Numbered from the stretch's first letter, positions 1 through 20,405 are shown. The stretch: 64,000 bases of DNA from an uncultured Bacilli bacterium (GCA_947623825.1 CANQHQ010000003.1:4220-68219); one strand, 5' to 3'. The notes: a model not told the origin generated them from the sequence alone. A program made the numbers and translations.

Positions 1-1306
1 CCGCCGGTACTTCGTAGGTTGTACTCTTTGTCGGTTTCCAATCTAAATTTCCACGGTCTGGCATGGTTCCTTCCAATAATTTCCCATTGACCCATGCGTT
101 TTTCCCTTTTAAAATATTTCCTTCTGCAGCTGTTGCCTTCGTATTAGCATCTAAAGTTGTAACTGTAATCTTTCCCGTTCCGTCGTGATATCCTTCCGGT
201 ATCATGTATATATCTCCTGGATTCATGGTTTTTTGCACGCCATGATTGTTTGGCATACTTCCTATCACTTTTGTTCCATTTACCCAGGCTTCTTTCCCAG
301 TTAGAATCTCCTTTGCTTTCGCTGTTCCCTGTGTTCCATTCTTTAGGGCTGTCGAAGTACAAGCATGGAGCGTTTGAGTTGTCACGATACTTATATTTCC
401 TAGATGGTCTTTCGCATAAATTGGAGTTTCAGTTCCTACTGCTAATACCTTACTTGTATCTCCCACCCAACTTTCTCCTTTATCAAAGGAATAGATTTCT
501 CCATTTACATCCACTCCTACTCCGTTATCTTTCACACTATTCTTGTCGATGGATACTTCTAATTCGTCTTTCGATAAAAGTACATCTTCATTCGCAACTA
601 AACGAAACTCTGGCCCTAAACTATCTCCTTTTATCAAATGTCTAGTGGCTTCACTAATGTTTTCTCCTTCATCGACCGCTCTTACAAAGATATTTCCATT
701 ATAATTTGTATACGTATGTTCCTCATTTTCCATTTTTATCCAATTGATAAAATCCAAACTATATTCCATGTCTTTTATTGGTAAATTATAAGGACTACTA
801 CTGTTGTATTTCGCATAGATATGCTTTGCCCACTCTCCTTCTTTGTAAGGTTCCCCATTTTCGTTATCTTGCTTCAATGTGTATTCTACTTTGAACTTTC
901 CGTTGACTCCTTTACAAGCGAGTGGAATGGGATCAGACTCATGCATCAATGTTCCTGCTTCATCATGACAGTTCAAATAATATTCATAGTTATATCCATC
1001 ACTGATTCTCTTTCTTACAATCACACTTCCACTACAAGTAATTCCCTCTTCCTCTACTAATTCTTCATCCAATAAGGCTTGATAGGGAATATTAAAACAA
1101 TCCGCTGTTTCATTATTAAATTCTCCTCGATAATTCTTAACATACAATTTCACTGCCTCATCCACAATTTTTTCATGAATACGATATTTCTTTTGCGAAT
1201 TATTATACGTTAAATTTCGAACAGAAGGAATGGCAATTACCATGACCAACCCCATAATAATTACTACTGTCAACAACTCGATTAATGTAAAACCCTTATT
1301 CTTATT
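1..1306 (-). CDS. Type IV pilin-like / prepilin N-terminal domain protein, large (>430 aa). Partial: it runs past the window start. GTG start.
   Basis: I translated the minus strand by hand. After an in-frame TAG, a GTG at 1306..1304 begins MKNKGFTLIELLTVVIIMGLVMVIAIPSV, the classic prepilin peptidase site G|FTLIE followed by a hydrophobic helix. I spot-checked the frame at about seven places down to nt 60 and it stays open. There is no stop inside the window, which explains why it is missing from the ORF track. A TATAAT -10 lies about 30 nt upstream of the GTG. An approximately 20-aa motif (ILxGKxAWVNGxxxxGxMP) occurs twice, about 60 aa apart. Confidence 0.6.
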
Positions 1307-1402
1307 CTTCACTCTATCACTCTACTTTCTAGTAAGATTATACCCTTTTTTTCTTCGATTTGGCAATACCTTTCGACGGATTGATATGCAAAAAAAGAAC
1401 GA

Positions 1403-2611
1403 TCACTCGCTCTTTTTATGTTTTTTTAATTCTTGGTTCACTAGTTTTTTATAAGCCTCTACTCCTGGCTGATTAAAAGGATTCACATCTAGTAAATATC
1501 CACCAATTGCCGCAGCCATTTCTTCAAAGTAAATCCATTTTCCTATTTCCATAGGAGAAAGTTCCGAAAGCGTAAAGAGGATACTTGGCGTATTTCCACT
1601 TTCATGGGCTTCCATTACTTTTTCCAAAACCAAATGATTTAATTCATTCATCGAAAGGTCATAATTTTCTAGCGTCAGATCTTCGGTTTCTTCTATCTTC
1701 CATACGGTTTCAAAAACATTTTTCGTGCCCTCTTGAAGATATTGTCCAATCGAATGAAGATTAGTTGTATTTTCATTTACGATGGGAAGAATTCCCTTTC
1801 CTTCTTTCCCTTGTGTTTCCGCGAACAATTGTTGTGCCCAAGCCGCAAAAGAAGATAATTTTTCTTCATAAATCGTATTGGCTTCTATCGTATAACCATC
1901 TTCTTCCAAATGTTTTCTTACTAGTGCGTATTGGGCGGCCTCGTCGAAACAGTTACGATTGAAGTTAGCACCCGTTAAAAGAGAAAGAAAATCGATTCCT
2001 GCCACAGCGATTGGAAATAACCCTACTGGAGATAATACGGAATACCTTCCTCCAATTTGTCTTGGGACAGTCAATGTCTCCAAATGATTTTCGGTCGCAA
2101 ATTTTCTTAGTTTTCCTTCTTCTTTATCGGTAGTTACAATGATTCTTTTCTCATAATCAGAAAAATGTTCTTTCATATACTTGTAAATTTTTTCAAAGGC
2201 AATCGATGGTTCTAGAGTTCCTCCCGATTTGGAGATGACATTGACATAGACACTTTTTCCTTCGAGATACATTAAAAGTTCTTTCAAGTAACTCGAAGAT
2301 AAGTGGTTCCCAGCGAAAAGAATTTCTGGCTTGTTCTTTTGAAAATAAGGTTGAAGTGCTTCGATTACAGCCCTACTACCTAAATAAGATCCTCCGATAC
2401 CAATGACAACGAAAACATCGGCTTGATTTCGAATCTCGCTCGCAAGAAGGGAGATCTTTTTCTTCTCCTCTTCCTCGATACAAGTTTCTACATCTAGCCA
2501 GTCTAACATCTCTTGCTTTTGGTTCATCTTCTCTTTGATTTCTTCTAATTTTTTTCTTTCTTCTTCCGAACATGTATTCCATTTTTTTGCATGTGTGAAA
2601 TCTATTTTCAT
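1403..2611 (-). CDS. pgi: Glucose-6-phosphate isomerase (Gram-positive type)
   Basis: 402 aa. Contains the GIGGSYLG and GGRYSVLSPVGL motifs typical of PGI. The start overlaps the stop of the upstream giant gene (coupled). Confidence 0.9.
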   Translation of the reverse strand: MKIDFTHAKKWNTCSEEERKKLEEIKEKMNQKQEMLDWLDVETCIEEEEKKKISLLASEIRNQADVFVVIGIGGSYLGSRAVIEALQPYFQKNKPEILFAGNHLSSSYLKELLMYLEGKSVYVNVISKSGGTLEPSIAFEKIYKYMKEHFSDYEKRIIVTTDKEEGKLRKFATENHLETLTVPRQIGGRYSVLSPVGLFPIAVAGIDFLSLLTGANFNRNCFDEAAQYALVRKHLEEDGYTIEANTIYEEKLSSFAAWAQQLFAETQGKEGKGILPIVNENTTNLHSIGQYLQEGTKNVFETVWKIEETEDLTLENYDLSMNELNHLVLEKVMEAHESGNTPSILFTLSELSPMEIGKWIYFEEMAAAIGGYLLDVNPFNQPGVEAYKKLVNQELKKHKKSE

Positions 2612-5600
2612 TCTTCTTTCACCTCGATTTGAACTTCGTGTACCTTCTTATCATTTACTAATCGAATTTCTTTTGCTTCTACTCCATCGATTAGAATTCG
2701 TTTTTCCTTTTTCTTTTGTACTTGGATATGGTATTCTGTTTCCTCATAGTGATAAGTTAATTCTATGGTACTCCATTCTTTTCCCATTTGTGGATGAATT
2801 TCTAGTTTGTCTTTTCGTTTCTGGAAACCTAGTAGATTTTCTAATCCAATTCGATAAAACCATCCACTCGATCCTGTATACCAAGTCCATCCTCCTCGTC
2901 CACGATGATTTGGATTCGAATAGATATCCGCCGCAATGACATATGGTTCGGTCCTATACGTCTTTGTATCTTTTTCTGTTTTGGTACGGTGAATTGGGTT
3001 TACCATCTGGAAGATTTTTAAGGCTTCCTCTTCTCTCTTTAATTTTAAGAGCGATAAGATATACCAAGAAACGGCATGAGTATATTGTCCTCCATTTTCT
3101 CTTACCCCTATCGGATAATCCATAATATAACCCGCATAATTTCTACTGTTTTTAAAGGCTGGAGTTAACAATTTTACAATTTTGATATTTTTATCGACCA
3201 ATTGGTCTTCGACACAACGAAGAACACTTTCGATTCTTTCTTTTGGAATCACTTCTGATAAGATAGAAAAACTTTGCGATATTAAATCGATTTTACATTC
3301 TTCGCTTTCTTTGCTTCCTACTTTGGTTCCATCATCGAAGAAAGCACGTAAATAATATTCTCCATCCCATGCCTGTTCATTGATATTTTTCTTTAATTCT
3401 TCCCGCGCCTTTTCATATTTTTCGGTAGAAAGGTTCTTATCGTATTTTTTGGTTAACTGAATGAACTTCTCTAAGACGTCGTAGAAGAAGAAGGCAAGCC
3501 AAACACTTTCTCCTTTTCCTTGGATTCCGATTTGGTTCATTCCATCGTTCCAATCTCCTCCACCCATATGAGGAAGTCCGTGTTCTCCTAAATCATTCAA
3601 TGTCCGTTCGATAGCGAGACGGCAGTGTTCATACAAGGAAGCGGTTTCTTCACTCAAAGTAAAGTCTTCTCCTCGTTCTTCCTCAAAATCTTGAAGAAGA
3701 CTTCCTTGGGCAAAAGGAATTTGTTCTTTCAAAATAGAAGTATCTTCGGTGACTTCGATATAATCATTCGTTGCGTAGACAAGCCATAAATAGTCATCTT
3801 TGAAGCGACTTCGCAATCCAAAATTCTTTGGTTCTAACCACCAGTGAAGTACGTCTCCTTCCTGGAATTGATGACTGGCATTTTTCAAAATTTGTTTTCT
3901 AGCCAATGCCGGATAGATACTACGAAGATTCATCGTATCTTGTAATTGGTCTCGATATCCAAAAGCCCCACTTACTTGATAGAATCCAGCCCGAGCGAGA
4001 ATTCGTCCGACAATCGTTTGATATAAGTACCAACCATTCATCATGTAATCGAAACTTGGGTCATTGGTTTTTACTTGTACTGTTTCGAGTGTTTTCTTCC
4101 AGAAGGCTTTGACTTTCGATAATTCTTTTTCATACTCTTTCGTGGAAGCGTACTTTTCTTTGATTTCTTTAATTTCTTCTAGATTTCCGCCCACTCCCAG
4201 GATAAATCCGATCTTCTTCTTTTCTTTTCCTTTGAGTTCGATAAAAGTTTGAACAGATTTCACAAGAATTTTATCACCGTTCATTTCGTTAATCGGTTCC
4301 GTCGAAGTTACAAAGATAAGGTTCTCTCGATATTCTTTACTATAAACGTTTCGAAGGGTCATCCAGTTTTCTTCTGGATAGGTTTCCGTTAGTAAGTATC
4401 GACTGGTTTTCTCTTCTAGATTTCCTAAAACAGGATTCAACCAATAAGCAACGTCATATTGTTTGGTTTCTTCTGTTAAATTTTCTATCTCGAAAAGATA
4501 AAATTTTACTTTTTCTTCGGTCGCTACAAATTCCGTCAAAGTCTCTTTCAACTCTTTGGTTTGACTTTCAAAAATGGTATATCCGAATCCATGTCTTGCG
4601 ATACTTGGGTAAAAACTTTCTTGATTGATGCGAATTCCTTCCGACTGATCGAAGGAAACGATATCATTCGTCCAAGAAGTAAGCTTGAATTCTTGACTGT
4701 TATAGGCATAGGTAAAGCCACTCGCATTATTACTTACCAACGTACCAAATTGGGCATTCGCAAGGATATTGAACCATGGAGTTGGCGTATCTGGTGTCGT
4801 GATGACATATTCTTTTCCTTCGTTCGCAAAACCACCAAAGCCATTGGCAAAGGCAAGATTTTTTTCTGGTGGAGCGGGAAGATTCTTTTGTTTTTGAATC
4901 GGTTGATACGTACTCGCACTGTTTTGGGCTTGTAGTGCTTCAATATAAGAATGCATCGAATCATGTTCCCTACTATCCAAACGAAGACGAGCGACCACAT
5001 TAAATAACAATTGTTCTTCCTTGGTCATATCATCAGAATGAATATAGAAAATCTTTCCAGGACGATTGCCAAAAGAATTCGTCTTATAGATTTGATAAAT
5101 CGTAAAATCAATTTCTTCTTTGATTCGTTTTTCGTACTGCTTCTTTTCATCGTTGATGATAATGACATCAACAAAAATTCCCTTCGTTTTAAAATATTCG
5201 TAGGCCTTCAATAGTTGTTTTGCCAAACTGATGGCACTCAGATCATGGATTGTTAAAGTAATCATCGGTCGATCACCAGAGACTCCAAACTTCCAGAGAG
5301 AATCTTGCGCTAGAACATTTCTCTTCAAGAGTTCTTTTCTTTCTTCATTGATGTTCATTTTACTTGTCTGATACAAATAATTTAACATGATATTGTAAAG
5401 TCTCATATCTCGACCTGTAATGTTTAGTTTTTTACAGTTCGAAAGATTCGTGATGGTGGCAAGTTCAAATTCTTCTTCGATTGAAGATTCATTCTCATAG
5501 AATTTCGCAATATCAATGACTTGATTTCGACTCGTTCCAAAGCAGTTCAAAATATAAATTTCTCTGGATTCTTCTGGGGCAAGAGAAATGGTGTTTCTCA

Positions 5601-8600
5601 TACTCATGACAGGATCAATTGGGGTCGCTGCTTCATTGGAAAGTTTTCCTTCAAGGGCAATTGGATTCGTCGCCGTACGATTTCTTCCGATAAATTGAAC
5701 TCGTTGCGTCTCGTATTCGTAATCTTTTTCTGTATCTGGAATATAAAGGCGATGAAGCAAATAATAACGATCGGGACGATTTCGTAAAGTTCGTTTCATA
5801 ATTAAAGCATTGACATTCGTATCGTATTCACTCTCTAAGAAAAGATTATTGAACGTTCGATGCGTTACATCGTTAATATTCTCCGTAATGGTTGGTTCTA
5901 GATACGTGGTAAGTTCTAGTGTTTTCTTTGTCTTGGCATTGTTTTTGATGGTTACTTTTCGAATTTCGGCATTATACATCGTACTGACAATGATTTCCGT
6001 CGTCGTCGCAACCTCGTTTTCAACCAAAACATATTTCAAACGATCGGAAGCAAAAACTACTTCATATTTTTCTGGTTTCCGGTTGATTGGGGCATAAGTA
6101 TTACTCCAAATTTTGCCATTTTCGGTATCTTTGAGGTAAAGAAAGGTTCCATAATCTTGTTCCGTTACCTTGCGATACCGATTTAATTGAATTTCTTTAT
6201 AACGACTGAATCCATTTCCTCTATCGTTCATCAATACTGTATACTTCGAATTTGAAATCGCACTCACTTCTGGTAAATCGGAAGGACAAGTAAAGTAACG
6301 CATATCATTTTCAATGACTTCTTTTTCATAGTTAAATCGTTTGTACTTCGCAATCTTCCAATCGATGACAGGATTTAATTGAATCTTTTCTTTTGTCAAA
6401 ATCTCAAAAGCCCGATTATTGGTATCTTCCATAAAATAGTCTTGGATGATTCCATTCTTTAGATAATTGGTAAGCGAAGAAAGAATCATTCCCTGATGAT
6501 GAGAGAAGAACGCCCGAACTGGTTTTTTGGTCTTTGTATCATACGATTCATAGAATCCGTAAGGGGTTTCTAATCCCAATTTTCTTAGTTTATGAATGTT
6601 TTTATACACTTCTTTTGGTTTTTCGATCGTCACAAGAATCGAACTATAAGGAGAAATAACAAGATGCGTATCGTTTACTTCTTGTAATTTTAGATAAGGG
6701 ACAGAGAACGTTTTATATTTATAATTGACTCCATTATCTAATTCGTCATAGGCACATTCACTAATTCCCCATGGTAAATGACGATTTCTTTCCTGCATAT
6801 AAGCTCTTTGACAGAAATAAGCAAAATCGTAACTTTCATCTAAGAGAGTGTTTGGATAACTCTTCATAAAGATGAGAGGCATGTAGTATTCAAAAAGAGA
6901 CCCAGCCCAAGAAGCAACTCCTTTATGATGTCGAAATTTCGTTAGTGTTTTATCGAGGCAAAACCAATGTTTACTTGGTACATCTCCTTTCGCTATCGCT
7001 ACATAACTGAGTAGACGACTTTCACTAGCGAAGCGGTTGTATTTATAAACGGAACATTCATTTTCAAAATCGTTGTATCCCACACTGAAGACTTCTTCTT
7101 TCGTATATAATTTTGAAAAATCTGTTTGTTGAATCAAAAGACGACAACGATTCGCTAATCTTTCTTCCCCTATTTTTTTGAGAAATTCTTTGGTTACGAT
7201 GAGACAAGCAACAAAATTTCCACTATCTACCGAAGAGACAAAGTGTGGGAATAATACTTTCAATGTTTCTGTTTGATACCAGTTATATAAATGTCCATTC
7301 CATTTGTCTAGTTTCTCTATCGTTTCTAGAATTTTTTCCATATAGAAAGTGGCTTCATTCTTTTTGATGAAACCAAGTTCATAGGCAGAAACAACCGCAA
7401 GGAAAGAAAATCCGATATCGGTAGGAGAAGTTTTATTATCCCGTGCATAAGCGCGATTTTCTTGATAGTTATCAGGAATTAAGTAATGGTATTCTTCCGT
7501 TAAATTTTCTTCAAAGAACTTCCATGTCTTATGGGCGATAGCTTCTATATCTTTTGTTTCTTCTTTCGAAAGTTCCTGTGTCCGATTTCTTCTTGTTTCC
7601 TTACTGATGTAATACGTGATATAAGGCGCAAGAGAGAACGTTAAACTGATACACAAAGCAGAAATAAAGTTAGAATTTTGTCCAAATAGATAAGTGAAGA
7701 GAAGAAGGATAAAAATGATAAAGTAATTGGCTTTGAAGTTTTCAATATAATTCGTTAACGTATTTTTTATAGTCTTCTCTGCTTCTTCCGCGGTTAGCCA
7801 ACTGAGCAAATGTTTTTTACTGATGATCATCCGATATAAAGAGCGAAAAATCGCATCTAAATAAAGCGCGGCTTTATAAGGAAGGGTCGTAAAAGAAATA
7901 ATGGTTCTTAAAATGACCGCTTCTCCACTTTTAATGATATTCGTATATGGTTTTACTTTTACTTTTCTTGTGAATTGATGACTCAACTTTTCTGTTATAT
8001 AGAAAATGAGTGGCATCGCGATAACGAATAATACATAGATACTCCATCCCGTTAAATAACTGTGCGAACTGAAGTAAGCAAATAATAAGATAACAAGTAA
8101 GAAAAACTCGATGAGGCAACGTCGTAAGTTATCAAAAATTTTCCATCTTTCTAAAAGCGTCAACGGATTTTTATACTTTTTCCCTTGTTCATCTTTTACG
8201 TATGGGAAGAGCCATGGTAAGACCTGTGTATCGCCACGCATCCAACGATGATGCCTTGTCATATCCGTCAAATATTGACTACAAAAATCATCGAATAATT
8301 CAATATTGGAAGTGTATCCACTATGAAGATAGTTGCTTTCTACCAAATCGTGGGAAAGAATGAGTCCTGTTGGGAAACGATGGTCAATGACTTCGTCGTA
8401 CACTTTTAAGTGATAAATTCCTTTTCCCATAAAGCTTCCTTCGTGGAACACATCTTGATAGAAATTCGAAATTAACGTGTTGTATACGTCAAATCCACCG
8501 AGTCCAGCGAAGAGTTCTGCATAAAGAGAACGATTGGATGATTCGACATCGACACTTAGTTTCGGTTGCAAAATTCCATATCCTTGTACTACTTTATTTC

Positions 8601-10299
8601 TTTCTTTATTCAACACGGGTTGATTGAGAGGATGCGCCATTGTTCCAACTAAATCCGCTACACTACCAACGACAAGTTTGGTATCGGCATCTAGTGTAAT
8701 CACATATTTTATCTTTTCTTTTAAACTGTGTAACGTCTCTACTTTAAAAAATTTTTGTACTTCTTCTTTCGGCATTTTATTTAAGAGAAGCCGGTTAAAA
8801 TGAATCAAAGCTCCTCTTTTTCTTTCCCAACCGAGATAAGAATCTTCTGTCTCGTGATATACGCGATTTCGGTAAAGGAAAAAGAAACGTTCTTCTTGAT
8901 ATTTTTCGTTTAATTCTTTGCATTTTTGGATTCCATAAGCGGCTACTTCTTCATCGTGAGGAACCGCTTCTTGCTTTTGTTCACTACAATCTCCTAATAA
9001 AGCAAAATAGAGATGGTCCATCCGGTTTGCAAGAAATCCTGATTCTAAATTCGAGAACATAGCATCGATTTTTTTCTTATCCTTCAAAATGGTTGGAATC
9101 ACTACCATCGTTGCTTCACTTTCGCGAATTCCTTTTGAAAAATCTAATTTAGGAAGGGCTTTCGGTTTTAACTCTGTCGTTAAAATTCGATTCAAAATGG
9201 TAATGACAATTTCACTCGAAGGAATCCATAAAATGAGAAATCCAAGAAGTTTCTGTTCGGTCAGATAAGGGGCAAGTCCATAACTGATGGCACTCGTAAA
9301 CAAGAGAATAATGGTAAAATACAAGAATTCTCTTCTTTTTCGATTGGGCTCTTTTAAAAGATAGAAACCAATATGCTTCTTTTCTCTAGTACTTTGCGCA
9401 ATCAATCTTCGGACATAAATTAATTCACTCACCTTTTGTTTTTTGGCAAGTTTTACAATTCTTTCCCGATACATATTTTTAGAATCGGCATCCATCATTC
9501 GATAGGTACGATCACTATTCAATTCTTCTTCGGTTTCACTAATTTCTTCATAAATCGATTCGAGTTTGAGATGCTCATTCATCTTTAAAATGAGGAATAA
9601 ATTACTGATGACTAAATTCTTTTTGATTCTGTCTTCATAGACTTCATTTAATACCCTTTTTAGATTGGTATTATTTCTTTCTAAGTTTTCGTTTAATTCG
9701 TAAAATACTTGACTAGCCCCGCGATTTAAACGGTAAAGATTTTCATTTAGATATTCGATATAGATAGGATAATTGATGATATCTTCCTTAATTGTGATAT
9801 ATTTATGGATATCATCTTCCGGATGTTTCAAAAGTTTTTTTCCAAGAAAGACAATATCACTTTCTGCCCTTTTTCTTTCTAACATGGCACTTTTTTCAGC
9901 TACACATAATTCTTTTACTTTGTGAATAATTACCATAGATAGAATTGGACGAATTCGTTGAAGTCCTTGATAGGTAAAACTGATTTTATTATTCTTTTGA
10001 TAATATTTCAAATGACGAAACATACTTCTTTTCGTCATTTTATAATTGTTATTTTCCAAATAGTTCGTTAAAACATTCCAAAGTAGTTCACTCGTTTCTT
10101 TGGTATTACGAATCAACTTTTCATCGGCATAGATTTCTTCAATCATATTTTGATGCTCTAATAAGGTGGCATAGTTATCCAAAATCCACTCATTTAAGGC
10201 CCCGATGGGTTGATGGTTTTTTGTCTTCTTTACCAAAAAATTATAATATTTGGAAATGATTCTTAAATCCTTTTTAAACTCTCTATATCTTTTATACAT
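2608..10299 (-). CDS. Cyclic beta-1,2-glucan synthase-like giant protein (Cgs/NdvB/ChvB architecture). It has a membrane-embedded GT84 glycosyltransferase domain and a C-terminal GH94 glycoside phosphorylase-like domain.
   Basis: The N-terminal half has multiple transmembrane segments and a GT84 block: ITLDADTKLVVGSVADLVGTMAHPLNQPV ... GYGILQP ... LSHDL ... HHRWMRGDTQVLPW. These match the Cgs motifs TLDADT, MAHPLN, GYGILQP and HRWxRGDWQ. The C-terminal half carries GH94 signatures: GYRDQLQD, HWW, GGDWNDGMN, ENGGQYTHAVSW and GRGGWTWYTGSSGW. The ORF-track start (10332) is a TTG. The ATG at 10299 (MYKRYREFKK) has a GGGTGA Shine-Dalgarno 6 nt upstream and is preferred; it gives 2563 aa. Confidence 0.8.
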   Translation of the reverse strand: MYKRYREFKKDLRIISKYYNFLVKKTKNHQPIGALNEWILDNYATLLEHQNMIEEIYADEKLIRNTKETSELLWNVLTNYLENNNYKMTKRSMFRHLKYYQKNNKISFTYQGLQRIRPILSMVIIHKVKELCVAEKSAMLERKRAESDIVFLGKKLLKHPEDDIHKYITIKEDIINYPIYIEYLNENLYRLNRGASQVFYELNENLERNNTNLKRVLNEVYEDRIKKNLVISNLFLILKMNEHLKLESIYEEISETEEELNSDRTYRMMDADSKNMYRERIVKLAKKQKVSELIYVRRLIAQSTREKKHIGFYLLKEPNRKRREFLYFTIILLFTSAISYGLAPYLTEQKLLGFLILWIPSSEIVITILNRILTTELKPKALPKLDFSKGIRESEATMVVIPTILKDKKKIDAMFSNLESGFLANRMDHLYFALLGDCSEQKQEAVPHDEEVAAYGIQKCKELNEKYQEERFFFLYRNRVYHETEDSYLGWERKRGALIHFNRLLLNKMPKEEVQKFFKVETLHSLKEKIKYVITLDADTKLVVGSVADLVGTMAHPLNQPVLNKERNKVVQGYGILQPKLSVDVESSNRSLYAELFAGLGGFDVYNTLISNFYQDVFHEGSFMGKGIYHLKVYDEVIDHRFPTGLILSHDLVESNYLHSGYTSNIELFDDFCSQYLTDMTRHHRWMRGDTQVLPWLFPYVKDEQGKKYKNPLTLLERWKIFDNLRRCLIEFFLLVILLFAYFSSHSYLTGWSIYVLFVIAMPLIFYITEKLSHQFTRKVKVKPYTNIIKSGEAVILRTIISFTTLPYKAALYLDAIFRSLYRMIISKKHLLSWLTAEEAEKTIKNTLTNYIENFKANYFIIFILLLFTYLFGQNSNFISALCISLTFSLAPYITYYISKETRRNRTQELSKEETKDIEAIAHKTWKFFEENLTEEYHYLIPDNYQENRAYARDNKTSPTDIGFSFLAVVSAYELGFIKKNEATFYMEKILETIEKLDKWNGHLYNWYQTETLKVLFPHFVSSVDSGNFVACLIVTKEFLKKIGEERLANRCRLLIQQTDFSKLYTKEEVFSVGYNDFENECSVYKYNRFASESRLLSYVAIAKGDVPSKHWFCLDKTLTKFRHHKGVASWAGSLFEYYMPLIFMKSYPNTLLDESYDFAYFCQRAYMQERNRHLPWGISECAYDELDNGVNYKYKTFSVPYLKLQEVNDTHLVISPYSSILVTIEKPKEVYKNIHKLRKLGLETPYGFYESYDTKTKKPVRAFFSHHQGMILSSLTNYLKNGIIQDYFMEDTNNRAFEILTKEKIQLNPVIDWKIAKYKRFNYEKEVIENDMRYFTCPSDLPEVSAISNSKYTVLMNDRGNGFSRYKEIQLNRYRKVTEQDYGTFLYLKDTENGKIWSNTYAPINRKPEKYEVVFASDRLKYVLVENEVATTTEIIVSTMYNAEIRKVTIKNNAKTKKTLELTTYLEPTITENINDVTHRTFNNLFLESEYDTNVNALIMKRTLRNRPDRYYLLHRLYIPDTEKDYEYETQRVQFIGRNRTATNPIALEGKLSNEAATPIDPVMSMRNTISLAPEESREIYILNCFGTSRNQVIDIAKFYENESSIEEEFELATITNLSNCKKLNITGRDMRLYNIMLNYLYQTSKMNINEERKELLKRNVLAQDSLWKFGVSGDRPMITLTIHDLSAISLAKQLLKAYEYFKTKGIFVDVIIINDEKKQYEKRIKEEIDFTIYQIYKTNSFGNRPGKIFYIHSDDMTKEEQLLFNVVARLRLDSREHDSMHSYIEALQAQNSASTYQPIQKQKNLPAPPEKNLAFANGFGGFANEGKEYVITTPDTPTPWFNILANAQFGTLVSNNASGFTYAYNSQEFKLTSWTNDIVSFDQSEGIRINQESFYPSIARHGFGYTIFESQTKELKETLTEFVATEEKVKFYLFEIENLTEETKQYDVAYWLNPVLGNLEEKTSRYLLTETYPEENWMTLRNVYSKEYRENLIFVTSTEPINEMNGDKILVKSVQTFIELKGKEKKKIGFILGVGGNLEEIKEIKEKYASTKEYEKELSKVKAFWKKTLETVQVKTNDPSFDYMMNGWYLYQTIVGRILARAGFYQVSGAFGYRDQLQDTMNLRSIYPALARKQILKNASHQFQEGDVLHWWLEPKNFGLRSRFKDDYLWLVYATNDYIEVTEDTSILKEQIPFAQGSLLQDFEEERGEDFTLSEETASLYEHCRLAIERTLNDLGEHGLPHMGGGDWNDGMNQIGIQGKGESVWLAFFFYDVLEKFIQLTKKYDKNLSTEKYEKAREELKKNINEQAWDGEYYLRAFFDDGTKVGSKESEECKIDLISQSFSILSEVIPKERIESVLRCVEDQLVDKNIKIVKLLTPAFKNSRNYAGYIMDYPIGVRENGGQYTHAVSWYILSLLKLKREEEALKIFQMVNPIHRTKTEKDTKTYRTEPYVIAADIYSNPNHRGRGGWTWYTGSSGWFYRIGLENLLGFQKRKDKLEIHPQMGKEWSTIELTYHYEETEYHIQVQKKKEKRILIDGVEAKEIRLVNDKKVHEVQIEVKEE

Positions 10300-10398
10300 C
10301 GATATCACCCTACTCCTACTATAGTATATCAAAAATTCCCCTCATTCGGAAGTCAAAGTAGGAAAAAAATAAAAGGAAGGGGAAGTTTTTTCCCTTTC

Positions 10399-14775: not shown

Positions 14776-14851
14776 TCATTATACCAAAGATAGAAAAGAT
14801 ATGCAATAAAATTGTTTCTTTTTCAAGACTTTTTTCCTTTCTCTTTTAAAT

Positions 14852-14884
14852 AAGAAAAAATCCAAGAAGTTTTCCTCTTGGATT
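14852..14884 (-). terminator. Rho-independent terminator of the surface-protein gene
   Basis: Minus strand: AATCCAAGAGGAAAACTTCTTGGATT (9-bp stem) followed by TTTTTCTTATTT, immediately after the stop at 14887. Confidence 0.6.
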
Positions 14885-14886
14885 TC

Positions 14887-17800
14887 TTATTCATCATAAT
14901 TAGGAATGATGGTTGCTTTGAACCCATAATAGTCGCTACCACTACTATCTGTATGAAACAAGATTTTAAGATAATTTCCAGGGATAAGAATCGTTTCTGT
15001 TGTCTTGGTACTTCCTCCATACTTTCCATACTGTTTCTCATTAGAATCATATAGATAAATATAATCCCAACTTGGGCCTTCTGTTTGATACTCCAATATA
15101 ACTGTTAAAGAAGTCGCATTGTCAAAAGTATGTTCATATTCTTCGTTCAGATCACTATCATATGGATTATGTTTAGACTCCATGATAGTTCCCTCAACCA
15201 CTGTTACATTCGTAATGATGACATCTTCATTCGGCATAACAAAGGTATTTCCTTTCATTTTCGTTCCATTCATGTCAAACGAAGTAACTACACAATTATC
15301 TTGAGTTGATGTTAATGTAATTTTGGTAGTTATAATTCCACCAGATGGAGTCGCAATAATATCTTCTCTATCTTGAATCGTTACCGAATGTTCCACACAC
15401 GGACCGCTTGCTTTTACTACATTCGATTTTTCAGATCGGGTTGCAATCATTTGATCTACTAACGCTTCCGATTCAGTTGTATAATTGACTGTGATTTGAG
15501 CATTATTTTGGGTAGCAGCGCTAGAAAACATATAATCATAACTAGTCACCGAATTATTTAAAATACTGATTGTTGTGGTTAAAGTACTACAACCAGAAAA
15601 CATGGAACTCATATCCGTTACTTTACTTGTGTCCCAACCACTTATATCTAAACTGGTTAAGGATTTACATCCATAAAACATACGACTCATATTGGTTACT
15701 TGTTCGACGTTCCATCCACTTAGATTACCCACATTAGTTAAAGCGTGACAGTTAAAAAACATCTCATTCATATCCGTTACTTTACTTGTGTCCCAACCGT
15801 TTAAATTCCCAATACTGGTTAAGGAATAACAATTAGAAAATATGTAATGCATGTCGGTTACTTGACTCGTGTTCCAGCTGCTTAAATCTAAACTGATTAA
15901 GCGTTGGCACCAGTAAAACATGTAATGCATATCCGTTACTTTACTGGTATCCCAACCACTTATATCTCCGACACTAGTTAAGTCATAACACCCCTCAAAC
16001 ATGTTGCACATATTCGTTACCTGACCGGTGTTCCATTTACCTAAGTTTAAACTAGTTAAACTTAAACAATTATGAAACATCTGACTCATATTAGTTACTT
16101 GACTTGTGTCCCAGTCACTTATATCTCCCATATTGATTAAATCTTGACAACTAGAAAACATACTCCTCATACTAGTTACTTGATTTGTGTGCCAGTTACT
16201 CAAATCCTCTAAACTAGTTAACCGAATACAATCTTTAAACATATAACTCATATCAGTTACATGACTCGTGTCCCAGTTTTTTAAACCTTCTAAACTAGTT
16301 AATTGACTACAACCATTAAACATACTAGCCATATCGGTTACTTGACTTGTGTCCCAGCCACTTAAATCTAAACTGGTTAAAGCTTTACAACCAGAAAATA
16401 CCTGACTCATATTGGTTACTCGACCCGTGCTCCAGCCACTTAAATCTAAACTGGTTAAAACTTTACAATTATCAAACATCCCACTCATATTGGTTACTTG
16501 ACTCGTGTCCCAGTCACTTAAGCCCTCTAAACTGGTTAAGACGTAACAATTATAAAACACCATACTCATATTGCCTACATGACCTGTGTCCCAGCCACTT
16601 AAATCTAAACTGATTAGGGAAGTGCAATAGTAAAACATCTGCCTCATACTAGTTATCAGGCTTATGTCCCAGCCACTTAAATCTAAACTGATTAGGGAAC
16701 TACAATAGTAAAACATCTGCATCATATTCTTTAGTTGACTAGTATTCCAATCACTTAAACCCTCCAAACTAGTTAAGGTGCTACAATTATAAAACATACA
16801 ATCCATATTGGCTACTTGACTGGTGTCCCAGCCATTTAAATCTAAAGTGGTTAAGGAATAACAATTATAAAACATCTCATACATATTGGTTACTTTTCTT
16901 GTATCCCAGCTACTTAAATCCAAACCTGTTAAAGCTCTACAACGAGAAAACATTTCACTCATATCGGATACTTGGCTCGTATCTAATAATTCTAAATCTT
17001 CTATCGCCTTTAATTTTGAAAAGGAAGAAAAATAATCGCCACCAAATAAGTAAGAACTATCTGAATTCGCAATGACTCTCCCTTCCAAGCCTTGAATATA
17101 GGCAGTATAAGTCGAAGAATCATCAGAATTCGGTACCAATAATCCTCGTACGGATCCATCTTTAGCTTCTGAAATATCCCATGTAAGTTCATCAGTAGCA
17201 CCTTCTTTTAATGTCTGTTCCCCTTCAATTACTATCTTTGTAATAGATTCTTTATATTGCCATAGTTCTCCATTATAACTACTAGAATCTATTTCTTGAA
17301 GAACTGGATCTTTTTGGACGTAAACCTCTCCTTCCACCGACTTCGATAATCCCATTCTTCCCCATTCTGCTCGTAATGTTACATCCTTCTCAGGCATTGT
17401 AAAGTAGTCATCATTCAGTTTCTTCACTCCTCCTGTAACAATCTTCCATCCTTTGAATTGATATCCTTGGCAGGTAGGGGTCTCACTACTTTTCTCTACC
17501 GTTTCAAAGACTCGGTAACTAGATTTCTCCGGTACCCCACTCACACTACATCCACTTGGGGCATTTCCATCATAAGTAACATTATAATGACTTGCTAAAA
17601 TAGGAGTTTCTTTGGTCGTAACATCTTCTCTATCTTCTTCTATTTGAGAAACCACTTCACTACTCTTGTTAGTCAGGTAAAGTCCTCCTTCTTCAAGATA
17701 TGCTTCCTTTAAATCAATATCAATTGTTAAGGTAGCACTTCTTCCTGCACCTAACCCACTTAAATCCCATGTGACTTTTGATACTCCATTATCATCTTCT

Positions 17801-18714
17801 AATTTTACTTTTCCAATAGAAGACTGAATATTCGAAACATTCTTTAAATCAAAATATTCATTATTAATCCAATCCGTTAATATAAAGTTCTCATAAGGAG
17901 TTGGCACAACCGAAGCATCAAACAAAATATTATTCAACGTAGTCATATCAGCGATGAACTGACTATCACTAATTTCTTTGATGGGATCTAGAATTTCTTC
18001 TCCCATTTCATACTGAACTCCATGAATGTTTAACCATGGATATTCACTCTTTAAATATTTGTATTCTCCTATTTGATTCGGAATATCTTCATTCGGGTAT
18101 CCATCCGTTAAAAATAAAACAACGCATTCTGTATCTTTCTCCTTGGAATAGTTTTTCAAAATCTCATCCACATGGACAAGTGGTTGATAATAATTCGTAC
18201 TACCTTGATCAGAAAGAGAAGAAATTTTCTCTGTTAAACTACTCTTATCATTAGTAAAACCAGATACCAATTCTGACCCTGTATCAAATGTAATCAATGC
18301 TGCTTGATTGTTAGGATTAGATAATAATGTATTCAATAAACTGATGGAATCTTCTTTGACTCGGTCTAATTTTTCTCCTGCCATAGAACCTGAAATATCA
18401 AGGACTAAAATGACATCCGTATTTGGATTTCCCGTCCTTAAAACTGTATCTACTTGGAAAGTAATTCTCGCTTTTCCCAATCCAATCCATTCGGCACTCT
18501 TCTCTATCTTCCAACTCCCTGAATTCTTCTTTTCATAACTTAACGTTTTTGAAAAAAAAGAAATCTTGGGAACTGGTTCATTTAAGGCATATGAGTTCAT
18601 CAAAAGCCCTATTCCAATCATAAAAAAGCCTAGTAGTCCAAGAGATACAAACTTTAAATTCTTATGAATCTTTAAAAACAACCAGTTCATAAATTTTCCT
18701 CCATCAAAAAACAA
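14887..18714 (-). CDS. Large surface protein. N-terminal signal/anchor, von Willebrand factor A domain, Listeria-Bacteroides repeat, about 19 tandem DUF285-type repeats, and a C-terminal beta-rich domain.
   Basis: 1275 aa. Begins with the hydrophobic MNWLFLKIHKNLKFVSLGLLGFFMIGIGLL. The VWA MIDAS motif is DVILVLDISGSMAG. YNVTYDGNAPSG...GYQFKGWK...TLRAEWG is a Listeria-Bacteroides repeat (PF09479). A long array of 25-aa units follows, of the form LSxWDTSxVTxMxxMFxxCxxLTSLD, which matches DUF285 (PF03382). A GGAGG Shine-Dalgarno sits 8 nt upstream. Confidence 0.8.
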   Translation of the reverse strand: MFFDGGKFMNWLFLKIHKNLKFVSLGLLGFFMIGIGLLMNSYALNEPVPKISFFSKTLSYEKKNSGSWKIEKSAEWIGLGKARITFQVDTVLRTGNPNTDVILVLDISGSMAGEKLDRVKEDSISLLNTLLSNPNNQAALITFDTGSELVSGFTNDKSSLTEKISSLSDQGSTNYYQPLVHVDEILKNYSKEKDTECVVLFLTDGYPNEDIPNQIGEYKYLKSEYPWLNIHGVQYEMGEEILDPIKEISDSQFIADMTTLNNILFDASVVPTPYENFILTDWINNEYFDLKNVSNIQSSIGKVKLEDDNGVSKVTWDLSGLGAGRSATLTIDIDLKEAYLEEGGLYLTNKSSEVVSQIEEDREDVTTKETPILASHYNVTYDGNAPSGCSVSGVPEKSSYRVFETVEKSSETPTCQGYQFKGWKIVTGGVKKLNDDYFTMPEKDVTLRAEWGRMGLSKSVEGEVYVQKDPVLQEIDSSSYNGELWQYKESITKIVIEGEQTLKEGATDELTWDISEAKDGSVRGLLVPNSDDSSTYTAYIQGLEGRVIANSDSSYLFGGDYFSSFSKLKAIEDLELLDTSQVSDMSEMFSRCRALTGLDLSSWDTRKVTNMYEMFYNCYSLTTLDLNGWDTSQVANMDCMFYNCSTLTSLEGLSDWNTSQLKNMMQMFYYCSSLISLDLSGWDISLITSMRQMFYYCTSLISLDLSGWDTGHVGNMSMVFYNCYVLTSLEGLSDWDTSQVTNMSGMFDNCKVLTSLDLSGWSTGRVTNMSQVFSGCKALTSLDLSGWDTSQVTDMASMFNGCSQLTSLEGLKNWDTSHVTDMSYMFKDCIRLTSLEDLSNWHTNQVTSMRSMFSSCQDLINMGDISDWDTSQVTNMSQMFHNCLSLTSLNLGKWNTGQVTNMCNMFEGCYDLTSVGDISGWDTSKVTDMHYMFYWCQRLISLDLSSWNTSQVTDMHYIFSNCYSLTSIGNLNGWDTSKVTDMNEMFFNCHALTNVGNLSGWNVEQVTNMSRMFYGCKSLTSLDISGWDTSKVTDMSSMFSGCSTLTTTISILNNSVTSYDYMFSSAATQNNAQITVNYTTESEALVDQMIATRSEKSNVVKASGPCVEHSVTIQDREDIIATPSGGIITTKITLTSTQDNCVVTSFDMNGTKMKGNTFVMPNEDVIITNVTVVEGTIMESKHNPYDSDLNEEYEHTFDNATSLTVILEYQTEGPSWDYIYLYDSNEKQYGKYGGSTKTTETILIPGNYLKILFHTDSSGSDYYGFKATIIPNYDE
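15540..16990. repeat. Intragenic tandem repeat array with a period of about 75 bp, about 19 copies, encoding the DUF285 units
   Basis: A 75-nt periodicity is visible in the DNA. The recurring core is gttacttgactcgtgtcccagccacttaaatctaaactggttaa, with copy-to-copy divergence. Confidence 0.7.
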
Positions 18715-18804
18715 GGAATCTTATTTTTTTACTAAAAAAGAAAAAGGAACACGTATTACAAAATATTTTAGGGATTGTATTTGTGGTTCCTATCTTATCT
18801 CTAT

Positions 18805-18845
18805 TCTTAGTATACCCCCCCCCCACCTTGAAAAGTCAATAAAAA
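18805..18845 (-). promoter_or_regulatory. Promoter of the surface-protein gene with a homopolymeric G10 tract in the -35/-10 spacer (candidate phase-variation switch)
   Basis: Minus strand reads aTTGACTtttcaaggtGGGGGGGGGGTATACTaag. The -35 TTGACT is at plus 18839..18834. The -10 TATACT is at plus 18814..18809. The spacer is 19 nt and includes 10 consecutive G (plus C-run 18815..18824). With 8 G the spacer would be the optimal 17 nt. The Shine-Dalgarno/ATG lies about 90 nt downstream. Confidence 0.55.
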
Positions 18846-18862
18846 AGAGGCAACTGCCTCTA
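18841..18862 (-). terminator. Rho-independent terminator of the AI-2E transporter gene
   Basis: Minus strand: GAGGC AGTT GCCTC then TTTTTTATT, directly after the TAG stop. The T-run abuts the -35 of the downstream promoter. Confidence 0.5.
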
Positions 18863-20005
18863 GTTTGTCATCTTTTCCATGAGGGAAAATTTTTGATTGA
18901 AAAATTGCCAAATCGTCTTTACTAACGCAATGATTGGAGTCGATAAAATCATTCCTATGATGCCAAAGAAGTTTCCAAATACTAGTAAACCAAGCATAAT
19001 TGTTACTGGATGAAGTTTCATTGTTTTTCCCATGACTAATGGTTGTAGGAAATAACTTTCCAATAATTGGGCAATGACTACGGCAATAAAAGTACAAAGT
19101 CCTGTCATCGGATTCATAGAGAATCCTACTAATACGGCAGGGATTCCTCCGATATATGGTCCAATATAAGGAATAATATTGGTTACGGCACAGAATAGTC
19201 CAAATACCATTGGGGCTTTTAATCCAGCGATGGCTAAAGCAACCGATTGGAATAGGAAGAGAATTGCCATAATACGCAAGGTTCCTTCGACATAACTTCG
19301 TAAATTTCCATTTAACTTGTCGACGAGTTCCCTTGTATCTGCGCGATATCTCTTTGGTAGAAGATTCAATAAGTGTTCTTTCACATTTCCAAAATCAAAC
19401 AACATATAGAATCCAACCAAAAGTCCAATTAGAAGATTGACTCCTCCTGTAAGAATATTACTAACCATCGACATGATTTTGGTTGGAAGTCCGACGGTTA
19501 ACGAATTTCCTAATTTATTAATTGAATCATAGAATCCTACTTGTACTTCCTTTAGATCATATCCTGTGGAACTTGTTAATTCATCAAAAATACCATCTGC
19601 CCACTCTTTAATATCATTGAAAAATCCTGGGGCTGAAGCAATTAAGTCATTTAATTGTTGTCCAATCATCGGAATCATCATGTATAAAATTAAAATAATC
19701 AATGCGATTAAAATTACATAAATGAAAATGACTCCTAAGGTTCGATTGACTCCTTTTTTCTCTAATGTTTTTACCATCGGATCAAATAACCATGCGAGAA
19801 ATAATCCAATGAAAAACGGAGAAATGATTTTTAAAATTCTTCCTATTATCCCAAAAATTTTCAATTCTCCCATCAATTTGATTGTAATGTATGCCAGTAA
19901 AGCGATGGAAAGAAAAAGAATAATTTTTAATAAGGAAACACCAATACTGATTCCTTCGTTTAATTTTTTATAGTCGACGGAATCGTCTTTTCGTTTGACA
20001 AACAT
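18860..20005 (-). CDS. AI-2E family transporter (PerM/YdiK/UPF0118-type membrane protein)
   Basis: 381 aa with about 8 transmembrane segments. The family-typical C-terminal region reads PYIGPYIGGIPAVLVGF...ALVKTIWQFF. Shine-Dalgarno GAGGTGG. Confidence 0.75.
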   Translation of the reverse strand: MFVKRKDDSVDYKKLNEGISIGVSLLKIILFLSIALLAYITIKLMGELKIFGIIGRILKIISPFFIGLFLAWLFDPMVKTLEKKGVNRTLGVIFIYVILIALIILILYMMIPMIGQQLNDLIASAPGFFNDIKEWADGIFDELTSSTGYDLKEVQVGFYDSINKLGNSLTVGLPTKIMSMVSNILTGGVNLLIGLLVGFYMLFDFGNVKEHLLNLLPKRYRADTRELVDKLNGNLRSYVEGTLRIMAILFLFQSVALAIAGLKAPMVFGLFCAVTNIIPYIGPYIGGIPAVLVGFSMNPMTGLCTFIAVVIAQLLESYFLQPLVMGKTMKLHPVTIMLGLLVFGNFFGIIGMILSTPIIALVKTIWQFFNQKFSLMEKMTN

Positions 20006-20103
20006 TTTTCCACCTCGTTCGAGTTCATTATATCATAGTTTATGTCTTTTGGTTTTGAAATGACAATTTTCCAAGGTGCCTTGTCTTTATTTTACAGTTT
20101 TTT

Positions 20104-20135
20104 TCAAAAAAAGAGATACTTTTTTCGTATCTCTT
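20104..20135 (-). terminator. Rho-independent terminator after the small CDS
   Basis: AAGAGATAC / GTATCTCTT, a 9-bp stem. On the minus strand it is followed by TTTTTGAAAAAAA. Confidence 0.5.
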
Positions 20136-20153
20136 TCGCTCTAGATAGAGCCT

Positions 20154-20324
20154 TTACATCATATTTTCAATACTTTTTTCCATATCTTTTGTCATGTTTT
20201 TCATGCCCTTTTTCATGTCATCTGCACAATCTGGGCACATTTTCTTATACATGCACCAAGCACCGTATCCACTAAGTGCAAGCCCTAACATAACTCCGCC
20301 GATGATACTTCCTTTTTTCATCAT
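20154..20324 (-). CDS. Small hydrophobic Cys-containing protein (56 aa). Not in the ORF track.
   Basis: Hand translation of the minus strand: MMKKGSIIGGVMLGLALSGYGAWCMYKKMCPDCADDMKKGMKNMTKDMEKSIENMM. Shine-Dalgarno AAAGAGGTGATA directly upstream. A terminator hairpin lies downstream. Confidence 0.45.
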   Translation of the reverse strand: MMKKGSIIGGVMLGLALSGYGAWCMYKKMCPDCADDMKKGMKNMTKDMEKSIENMM

Positions 20325-20405
20325 TATCACCTCTTTATTAAAAATATGATCAGTATATTTCTATACCATTTGTAGTATGTTCTCTTTTTCTTTTTTTATG
20401 TAATT

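Follow-up and report, generated by a model that had tools for sequence, protein, structure and literature searches.

PARCEL (DUF285) domains diversify membrane and surface proteins, and the dyad symmetry of their coding DNA supplies the 'P' in the name (PMC2996958). In Lactococcus lactis IBB477 a DUF285 protein contributes to adhesion to mucin and polystyrene, and its knockout lowers adhesion (PMC5071367). BspA-like surface proteins are phase-variable through simple sequence repeats in Ca. Mycoplasma girerdii (PMC5476646), and for Mycoplasma bovis a DUF285 protein, MbovP0145, has been reported to be secreted and to modulate host signalling (PMC8707762). Here we analysed a 64,000-nucleotide stretch from an uncultured Bacilli bacterium (GCA_947623825.1, CANQHQ010000003.1:4220-68219; hereafter the window, with positions counted from its first letter), which carries on its minus strand a gene for a large adhesin-like protein that fuses a DUF285 array to a VWA domain. 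The spacer of its predicted promoter ends in a run of ten guanines (G10). Homopolymer switches in promoter spacers are classical, as in the poly-G of porA and the poly-C of opc in Neisseria meningitidis, the poly-A of vlp in Mycoplasma hyorhinis and the poly-C of fim in Bordetella, and surface-exposed structures are the typical targets of phase-variable promoters.

We propose, with a probability of about 0.62, that the gene encodes an accessory, exported, adhesin-type protein whose output is set by the length of the promoter spacer and whose solenoid changes length more slowly by insertion and deletion of whole repeat units. An N-terminal signal peptide or signal anchor would lead to export of the protein, and a metal-dependent head, formed by the VWA domain with its metal-ion-dependent adhesion site (MIDAS) and a β-sandwich and followed by a B-repeat, a rigid 18-unit solenoid, a B-repeat-like module and a CUB-like domain, would offer several binding surfaces. 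Transcription would start from a TTGACT/TATACT promoter with the spacer ending in G10, and slipped-strand gain or loss of G would change the spacer, which is 19 nt long here against 17-18 nt in relatives, and move expression up or down; G8-G9 would bring the spacer back to 17-18 nt. On a slower scale, recombination between partly identical units would add or remove whole 26-27-aa units and let the length of the solenoid drift.

Domains were called with Pfam and NCBIfam hidden Markov models (HMMs) against curated cut-offs. The minus-strand open reading frame (ORF) at 14887..18714 reported in the initial annotation was confirmed (1275 codons counted from its TTG), with its start moved, as the true start is almost certainly the ATG at 18690-18688, which lies 8 nt after a GGAGG and agrees with the N-termini of all close homologues. 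The protein scored 457 bits against DUF285 (PF03382; cut-off 25) and 522.9 bits, in 17 stretches, against TIGR02167 'PARCEL repeat' (cut-off 30). VWA_2 matched at 59.3 bits (cut-off 27) and VWA at 43 (23.8), and the B-repeat was found by Flg_new (PF09479; 29.8 against 27) and Flg_new_2 (PF18998; 27.9 against 23.6). These scores bear out the modular architecture proposed at the outset, a MIDAS-bearing VWA domain joined to a B-repeat and a DUF285 array; two modules nearer the C-terminus, a further B-repeat-like one and a CUB-like domain, had been missed. The MIDAS residues D98-x-S100-x-S102, T165 and D196 are invariant in 6 close relatives and, over 45 relatives, conserved to at least 90%. No Pfam model matches the second β-module, whose identification comes solely from hhalign, where it aligned with the profile of the first B-repeat (probability 80%, E 1.3e-5). 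The C-terminal module reached 19.5-20.5 bits against Pfam CUB (PF00431), under the cut-off of 21.4, while 7 of 12 family modules match CUB (best E 4.6e-6). Foldseek placed it with the CUB domains of C1s, C1r, MASP-1 and neuropilin at a TMt of 0.5-0.66 but at E-values of 7e-3 to 3e-2, and a PDB sequence search with the CUB-like profile found nothing.

The protein was modelled with AlphaFold2 as two overlapping halves (mean pLDDT 90.5 and 92.4). The model of the N-terminal half holds a VWA domain flanked by β-sandwich strands, then the B-repeat and a capping domain. N-terminal strands at residues 42-82 (window 18445-18567) and the β-sandwich that follows enclose the VWA domain as in pilus-tip adhesins, and the best PDB matches of the head in Foldseek were PitA (E 6.5e-20), SpaC (1.8e-16), RrgA (1.1e-14) and GBS104 (2.1e-12), together with Porphyromonas Mfa5; TM-scores were low (0.25-0.33) from differences in domain orientation. 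The MIDAS VWA flanked by β-sandwich is common to these proteins and ours. Unlike them, the window protein lacks LPXTG and pilin motifs, has neither sortase nor pilin genes in its vicinity, shares only 12-14% identity with them, and has a stalk predicted to be an LRR-type (leucine-rich repeat) solenoid and not a CnaB/Ig chain.

Structure prediction, which the initial annotation had proposed for the repeats, gave a confident, regular LRR-type solenoid with one short strand per unit and a pLDDT mostly above 94. Its Foldseek matches were the LRR proteins TLR9, LGR4, Toll and Leptospira LIC12759 (E 6e-8 to 1e-5, with low TM-scores). A PDB sequence search returned no solved relative of the repeat tract, no single stretch of it passed the generic LRR_8 or LRR_4 models, and PF13306 (LRR_5) was not among the Pfam matches of the protein at E <= 0.1, a weak precomputed match being present in some relatives only. 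In the model the tract is of LRR type and not a canonical internalin LRR. Like Listeria InlA and InlB, the protein combines an LRR-type solenoid with an InlB-type B-repeat and is predicted to have an extracellular ligand-binding role; unlike them it has a 26-27-aa PARCEL unit in place of the 22-aa LRR, no LPXTG or GW anchoring module, and both a VWA head and a CUB-like tail, which internalins lack. A canonical internalin was rejected on the repeat period, and copy number in the family is not conserved, ranging from 7 to 25 units across 44 relatives.

By HMM score and repeat pattern the protein classifies as a PARCEL/DUF285 member despite failing the DNA-palindrome feature. It shares with LppQ/LppC of Mycoplasma mycoides and the Mbov_0838 family the motif WDTS.VT.M..MF..C..LTSLD, arranged in variable-number tandem arrays in which all units differ, as well as a membrane/export signal and an accessory, patchy distribution (PMC2996958). 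It differs from them in its units of 26-27 aa against the canonical 25, in the fusion of the array to a VWA head, B-repeats and a CUB-like tail, in having no lipobox, and in the absence of dyad symmetry above chance level: an inverted-repeat search of the coding DNA was negative, inverted k-mer counts did not depart by more than 1 sd from those of shuffled sequences, and z-scores for fold energy ran from -1.7 to +1.4. A lipoprotein of the Mycoplasma type was rejected, as NF045896 (Mbov_0838-type PARCEL surface lipoprotein) scored 211 bits against a cut-off of 500 and the lipobox cysteine is absent. Unlike the wall-less mycoplasmas, the host genus is walled (peptidoglycan), as indicated by a penicillin-binding protein (PBP) with PASTA domains in a contig of a sister species (L059).

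DUF285 is widespread (PMC2996958) and not limited, as first stated, to the M. mycoides cluster and a few Firmicutes, and its fusion to VWA is common. A full-length search returned more than 900 homologues, nearly all of the top 120 with VWA and DUF285, and a search with the 423-aa head alone gave, at E <= 1e-30, at least 404 clusters at 50% identity, with end-to-end alignment in almost all of them. The best whole-protein match, P0001 (2064 aa), is only 66% identical and carries several extra B-repeat/CUB modules. The related genomes are all metagenome-assembled genomes of uncultured Bacilli, several with multiple paralogues, and relatives in the genome-contig scan reached at most 53% identity. 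One homologue from the full-length search, P0010, is labelled 'BspA family leucine-rich repeat surface protein' at NCBI. Our literature search found no experimental characterisation of the VWA-PARCEL family. The gene thus belongs to a known, large, uncharacterised family, and its candidate switch is also of a known type.

The accessory nature of the gene was observed directly. Two Logan contigs (L059 and L060) come from a sister species, as judged by an AlaS in the same 90% cluster and flanks with 76-78% DNA identity to the window. They align to window 27984-18865 and 14836-2004, and between these blocks 4,028 bp (18864-14837) are replaced by 45 bp. The gene order there is identical without the adhesin: recD2, a 56-aa ORF, the AI-2E transporter, dNMP kinase, alaS, holA, a giant GH94 gene and pgi. 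The gene is therefore not uniform across the lineage, and it stands as an accessory cassette between housekeeping genes, with the AI-2E transporter, dNMP kinase, alaS and recD2 as its neighbours.

The promoter had been missed by an automated scan that permitted only 16-18-nt spacers. Its layout is TTGACT-(9 nt + G10)-TATACT, and G10 is the sole G/C run of 7 or more in the whole window (GC 35%), the next longest being 6. Both hexamers are kept in homologous promoters, where the spacers measure 17-18 nt: G9 in L004 and L062 (18 nt each), G4AG5 in L001 (17 nt) and a degenerate G-rich sequence in L061 (18 nt). Uninterrupted tracts of G9-G11 stand at the equal promoter position (-35, 9 nt, Gn, -10) in 3 lineages, the window, L004 and L062/63, at only about 45% protein identity. 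Length polymorphism was seen in one homologue, P0007, whose promoter was read as TTGCAA-18-TATAAT with G9 in one of two samples and with G11 in the other; the protein is identical and the 9,762 bp show no other difference. A homopolymer promoter switch, as the initial annotation proposed, is plausible for the adhesin gene, and the present allele is probably low or off given its 19-nt spacer. Like the classical homopolymer switches, it would place the tract between the -35 and -10 of a surface-protein promoter; it differs from them in being known from sequence alone and in an uncultured Bacilli commensal. It also differs from the Ca. Mycoplasma girerdii system, in which dinucleotide repeats within or near genes act by frameshift.

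Several observations weigh against such a switch. All 4 copies of the gene, in the window and in 3 near-identical contigs, have G10; the uninterrupted tract occurs in only 4 of about 41 upstream regions of relatives; and the G11 copy of the P0007 promoter (L063) lies 5 nt from a contig end, which makes its tract length less certain. A tract universal in the family was rejected, 34 of 38 relatives' upstream regions being without one. A weaker promoter-like site downstream of the tract (18803-18774, 9/12 matches) could allow tract-independent transcription. On these grounds G10 might be an inherited G-rich spacer, with constitutive or ordinary regulation, possibly from the downstream site, and no phase switching; interrupted G-rich spacers of 17-18 nt in L001, L008 and the paralogue-like L061 suggest such ancestral G-richness. 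We consider a static promoter unlikely, as an uninterrupted G10 is a strong outlier in this DNA and sits in a non-canonical 19-nt spacer, as tracts recur at the same position in distant lineages, and as tract length was the sole difference in 9.8 kb between the two P0007 samples.

Variation in repeat number was assessed in the array and among homologues. The array spans 1425 bp with 18 units, one W-less first unit followed by 17 W-anchored ones, close to the 'about 19' units and 1.45 kb of the initial annotation; the unit measured 26-27 aa and 78/81 bp and not the 25 aa and 75 bp given there. Nor is the DNA hyper-repetitive. Every unit is unique, with a mean amino-acid identity of 48%; pairwise DNA identity between units averages 64% (maximum 83%), Tandem Repeats Finder (TRF) gave 66-73% matches across the array, and a single exact match exceeds 30 bp, a 35-bp repeat whose two copies lie exactly 78 bp apart. 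Computed deletion between these copies leaves an intact in-frame ORF of 1241 aa, and the pair is the likeliest site for one-unit in-frame deletion or duplication, the one good indel substrate in the array. At window 15576-16980 TRF also reported higher-order periods that span two units (159 bp) or three (237 bp), with a local 78-78-81 pattern of unit lengths, which hints at past duplication of multi-unit blocks.

At the level of the family, 4 of 10 homologue clusters (90% identity) contained full-length alleles that differ by whole-unit in-frame indels of 26-104 aa. P0012 and P0140 have 1231 and 1205 aa (difference 26), P0015 and P0179 1295 and 1269 aa (26), P0069 and P0196 1020 and 942 aa (78), and P0092, P0152 and P0159 975, 923 and 871 aa (52 and 104). 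These alleles show only 0-11 residue differences elsewhere, and the indels are in repeat register with junctions within locally identical stretches. Collapse of repeats in short-read assembly could partly explain them; pure collapse is unlikely, since both the P0012 and P0140 alleles recur in several independent assemblies on long contigs. In this gene itself no length variation was seen, which counts against the slower part of our proposal: three metagenome contigs 99.9-100% identical to the window, with identical flanking genes, showed no change in unit number (coverage was only 2-3x each and they may be one strain), and contig L013 aligned to the window without gaps over 4,540 bp, through units 1-17. 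The variation by unit number that had been predicted is thus supported for the family and was not seen among the copies of this gene.

Stronger still would be a high-frequency variable-number tandem repeat (VNTR), in which the 78/81-bp units recombine readily and give fast within-strain change in length as a second layer of antigenic or size variation. The whole-unit indels between near-identical alleles, the in-register 35-bp repeat and the TRF periods of 159 and 237 bp are what it would produce. We regard it as quite improbable: the low identity of the units, the gapless alignment of L013 and 4 other homologue clusters of constant length over 4-9 independent sequences make the indel rate look evolutionary and not within-population.

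Two further observations concern length outside the array. P0025 and P0186 differ by a 38-aa in-frame indel in the head β-sandwich/linker (residues ~332-369) and are otherwise identical, so length polymorphism is not confined to the repeat tract. The closest full-length homologues, P0001 and P0002, have 3-4 CUB-like and 6-9 B-repeat-like modules that alternate at the C-terminus, where the window protein has one of each; these C-terminal B-repeat/CUB arrays give the family a second way to expand by modules.

The protein is predicted to be exported. Residues 13-31 are its only hydrophobic segment, and the SYA/SFA motif is conserved in relatives. An adhesive role is inferred from the pilus-tip-adhesin-like head, the conserved MIDAS and the effect of the DUF285 knockout in L. 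lactis (PMC5071367). Against this stand the lack of a known ligand for any VWA-PARCEL protein and the absence of a recognised wall or membrane anchor, which leaves surface retention unproven: we sought LPXTG, a lipobox (N-terminal cysteine) and a C-terminal hydrophobic tail or anchor in the protein and found none. Lipoprotein, sortase substrate and pilus subunit were each rejected as their defining signals are absent. The missing anchor and the plausible signal peptidase I (SPase I) site SYA|LNE would also suit a protein that is released and is not a host or mucus adhesin, acting in cell-cell aggregation, in modulation of host signalling or in capture of glycans or proteins. CUB and LRR folds bind many types of ligand, and for host modulation MbovP0145, as reported (PMC8707762), offers a precedent. 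We judge this decidedly unlikely because the head is closest to bona fide adhesins and DUF285 knockout affects adhesion (PMC5071367). The predicted switch speaks for the same view, as phase-variable promoters typically drive surface-exposed structures.

That the cassette is silent, recently acquired or decaying, with a 19-nt spacer that locks the promoter off and a gene heading to loss, would fit its absence from L059/L060 and a frame break in the repeat tract of L061, but is very improbable given an intact 3.8-kb ORF, conserved MIDAS and repeat-core residues, an intact ribosome-binding site (RBS) and both terminators, and identity of the gene in several samples.

Table 1. Coordinates of the adhesin cassette and its predicted features in the window
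Feature	Position	Strand	Evidence
Whole accessory cassette: own upstream terminator, promoter, gene, downstream terminator	14837..18864	-	L059/L060 comparison
Intrinsic terminator-like hairpin, directly after AI-2E transporter stop TAG 18862-18860	18846..18861	-	6-bp stem, 4 GC pairs, T-run
Predicted sigma-70/sigma-A-type promoter: -35 TTGACT 18839-18834, 19-nt spacer, -10 TATACT 18814-18809	18809..18839	-	sequence; homologous promoters
G10 homopolymer at 3' end of promoter spacer, candidate slipped-strand switch	18815..18824	-	homopolymer scan
RBS GGAGG	18698..18702	-	8 nt before ATG
Coding sequence, 1267 aa + stop	14887..18690	-	ORF call, RBS, homologue N-termini
Basic N-terminal stretch and hydrophobic helix (residues 13-31), possible SPase I site SYA|LNE; signal peptide or signal anchor	18580..18690	-	19-aa hydropathy 2.0
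VWA domain, residues ~90-259, MIDAS D98, S100, S102, T165, D196	17914..18423	-	HMMs, alignments, AlphaFold2 model, Foldseek
β-sandwich after VWA, residues ~268-374	17569..17889	-	AlphaFold2, pLDDT >90
Listeria-Bacteroides / InlB-type B-repeat, residues ~377-445	17356..17562	-	Flg_new, Flg_new_2
Capping domain before solenoid, residues ~475-565	16996..17268	-	AlphaFold2: confident helix and strands; conserved in family
18 PARCEL/DUF285 units, 26-27 aa, residues 566-1040; predicted LRR-type solenoid	15571..16995	-	HMMs, AlphaFold2, Foldseek
Longest exact repeat, 35 bp, as two copies (16587-16621 and 16665-16699) at a distance of exactly 78 bp	16587..16699	-	exact-repeat search
Second, divergent B-repeat-like β-module, residues ~1101-1171	15178..15390	-	AlphaFold2 β-rich, confident; hhalign
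C-terminal divergent CUB-like domain, residues ~1183-1264	14899..15144	-	Pfam CUB near cut-off; Foldseek
Strong intrinsic terminator directly 3' of adhesin stop codon	14855..14888	-	15-pair stem and T-run

The hairpin at the upstream border of the cassette is predicted to insulate it against upstream transcription, and on its sequence the adhesin gene forms a monocistronic unit bounded by terminators at both ends. The stem of the terminator 3' of the adhesin resembles the AI-2E terminator of the sister species, which suggests insertion of the cassette 3' of the AI-2E stop codon and ahead of the terminator that originally followed it. Insertion sequence elements, att sites and direct repeats were sought at the cassette borders and none were seen. 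In L062 the same dNMP kinase-alaS-holA-pgi block is immediately followed, after pgi, by the family member P0007 (6001-9711), and such cassettes seem to have landed repeatedly in this conserved housekeeping neighbourhood.

A further adhesin-like copy was found in L061 (1416-4188; ENA ERZ27249651, from the same sample as the window's strain), downstream of trmK, with 78% DNA identity overall and 80% in the head, and is probably a paralogue. Its promoter has the degenerate G tract GATGGAGGAGAG in a spacer of 18. The frame is broken inside the repeat tract at ~3673-3680, which could reflect a pseudogene, out-of-register recombination or a low-coverage assembly error.

Three other ORFs of the region were noted. 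A 2574-aa ORF at window 2608-10332 (minus strand) has GH94 catalytic, GH94 supersandwich and glucoamylase-like domains and resembles a cyclic β-1,2-glucan synthase or phosphorylase; the sister species has it too (2564 aa, L059/L060), and in L062 it is absent between holA and pgi. Beside pgi, a minus-strand frame at window 1-1320 stays open for more than 440 aa and continues past the left end. It begins with a type IV pilin-like motif, KGFTLIELLTVVIIMGL, and reads as a large exported protein of pseudopilin or pilin-like type; on that side of pgi the sister species has a PBP gene. The 56-aa ORF between recD2 and the AI-2E gene was called in all related contigs including those of the sister species (L012 5690-5860, L059 7661-7831; window region 20042-20400) and may be a real conserved small protein.

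For the individual gene, the result mainly corrects and grounds its annotation. The gene illustrates how surface variation might be achieved in uncultured gut-type Bacilli, through a self-contained cassette with a slippery promoter and a resizable solenoid. It is possible, though we hold it as a tentative idea, that VWA-PARCEL(-CUB) proteins form a major unstudied adhesin class of uncultured gut Bacilli with three tiers of variation: presence or absence of the cassette at housekeeping loci, poly-G on/off switching, and resizing of the solenoid and of the C-terminal B-repeat/CUB arrays. If true, this would give Gram-positive commensals an equivalent of the repertoires of phase-variable adhesins in Neisseria and Mycoplasma, and the metazoan-type CUB-like tail would hint that the proteins mimic or bind host partners of extracellular-matrix or complement type. 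Once confirmed, a poly-G switch could be used to follow phase variation in metagenomes, and either that or a confirmed ligand would annotate many metagenomic proteins (at least 404 clusters) together.

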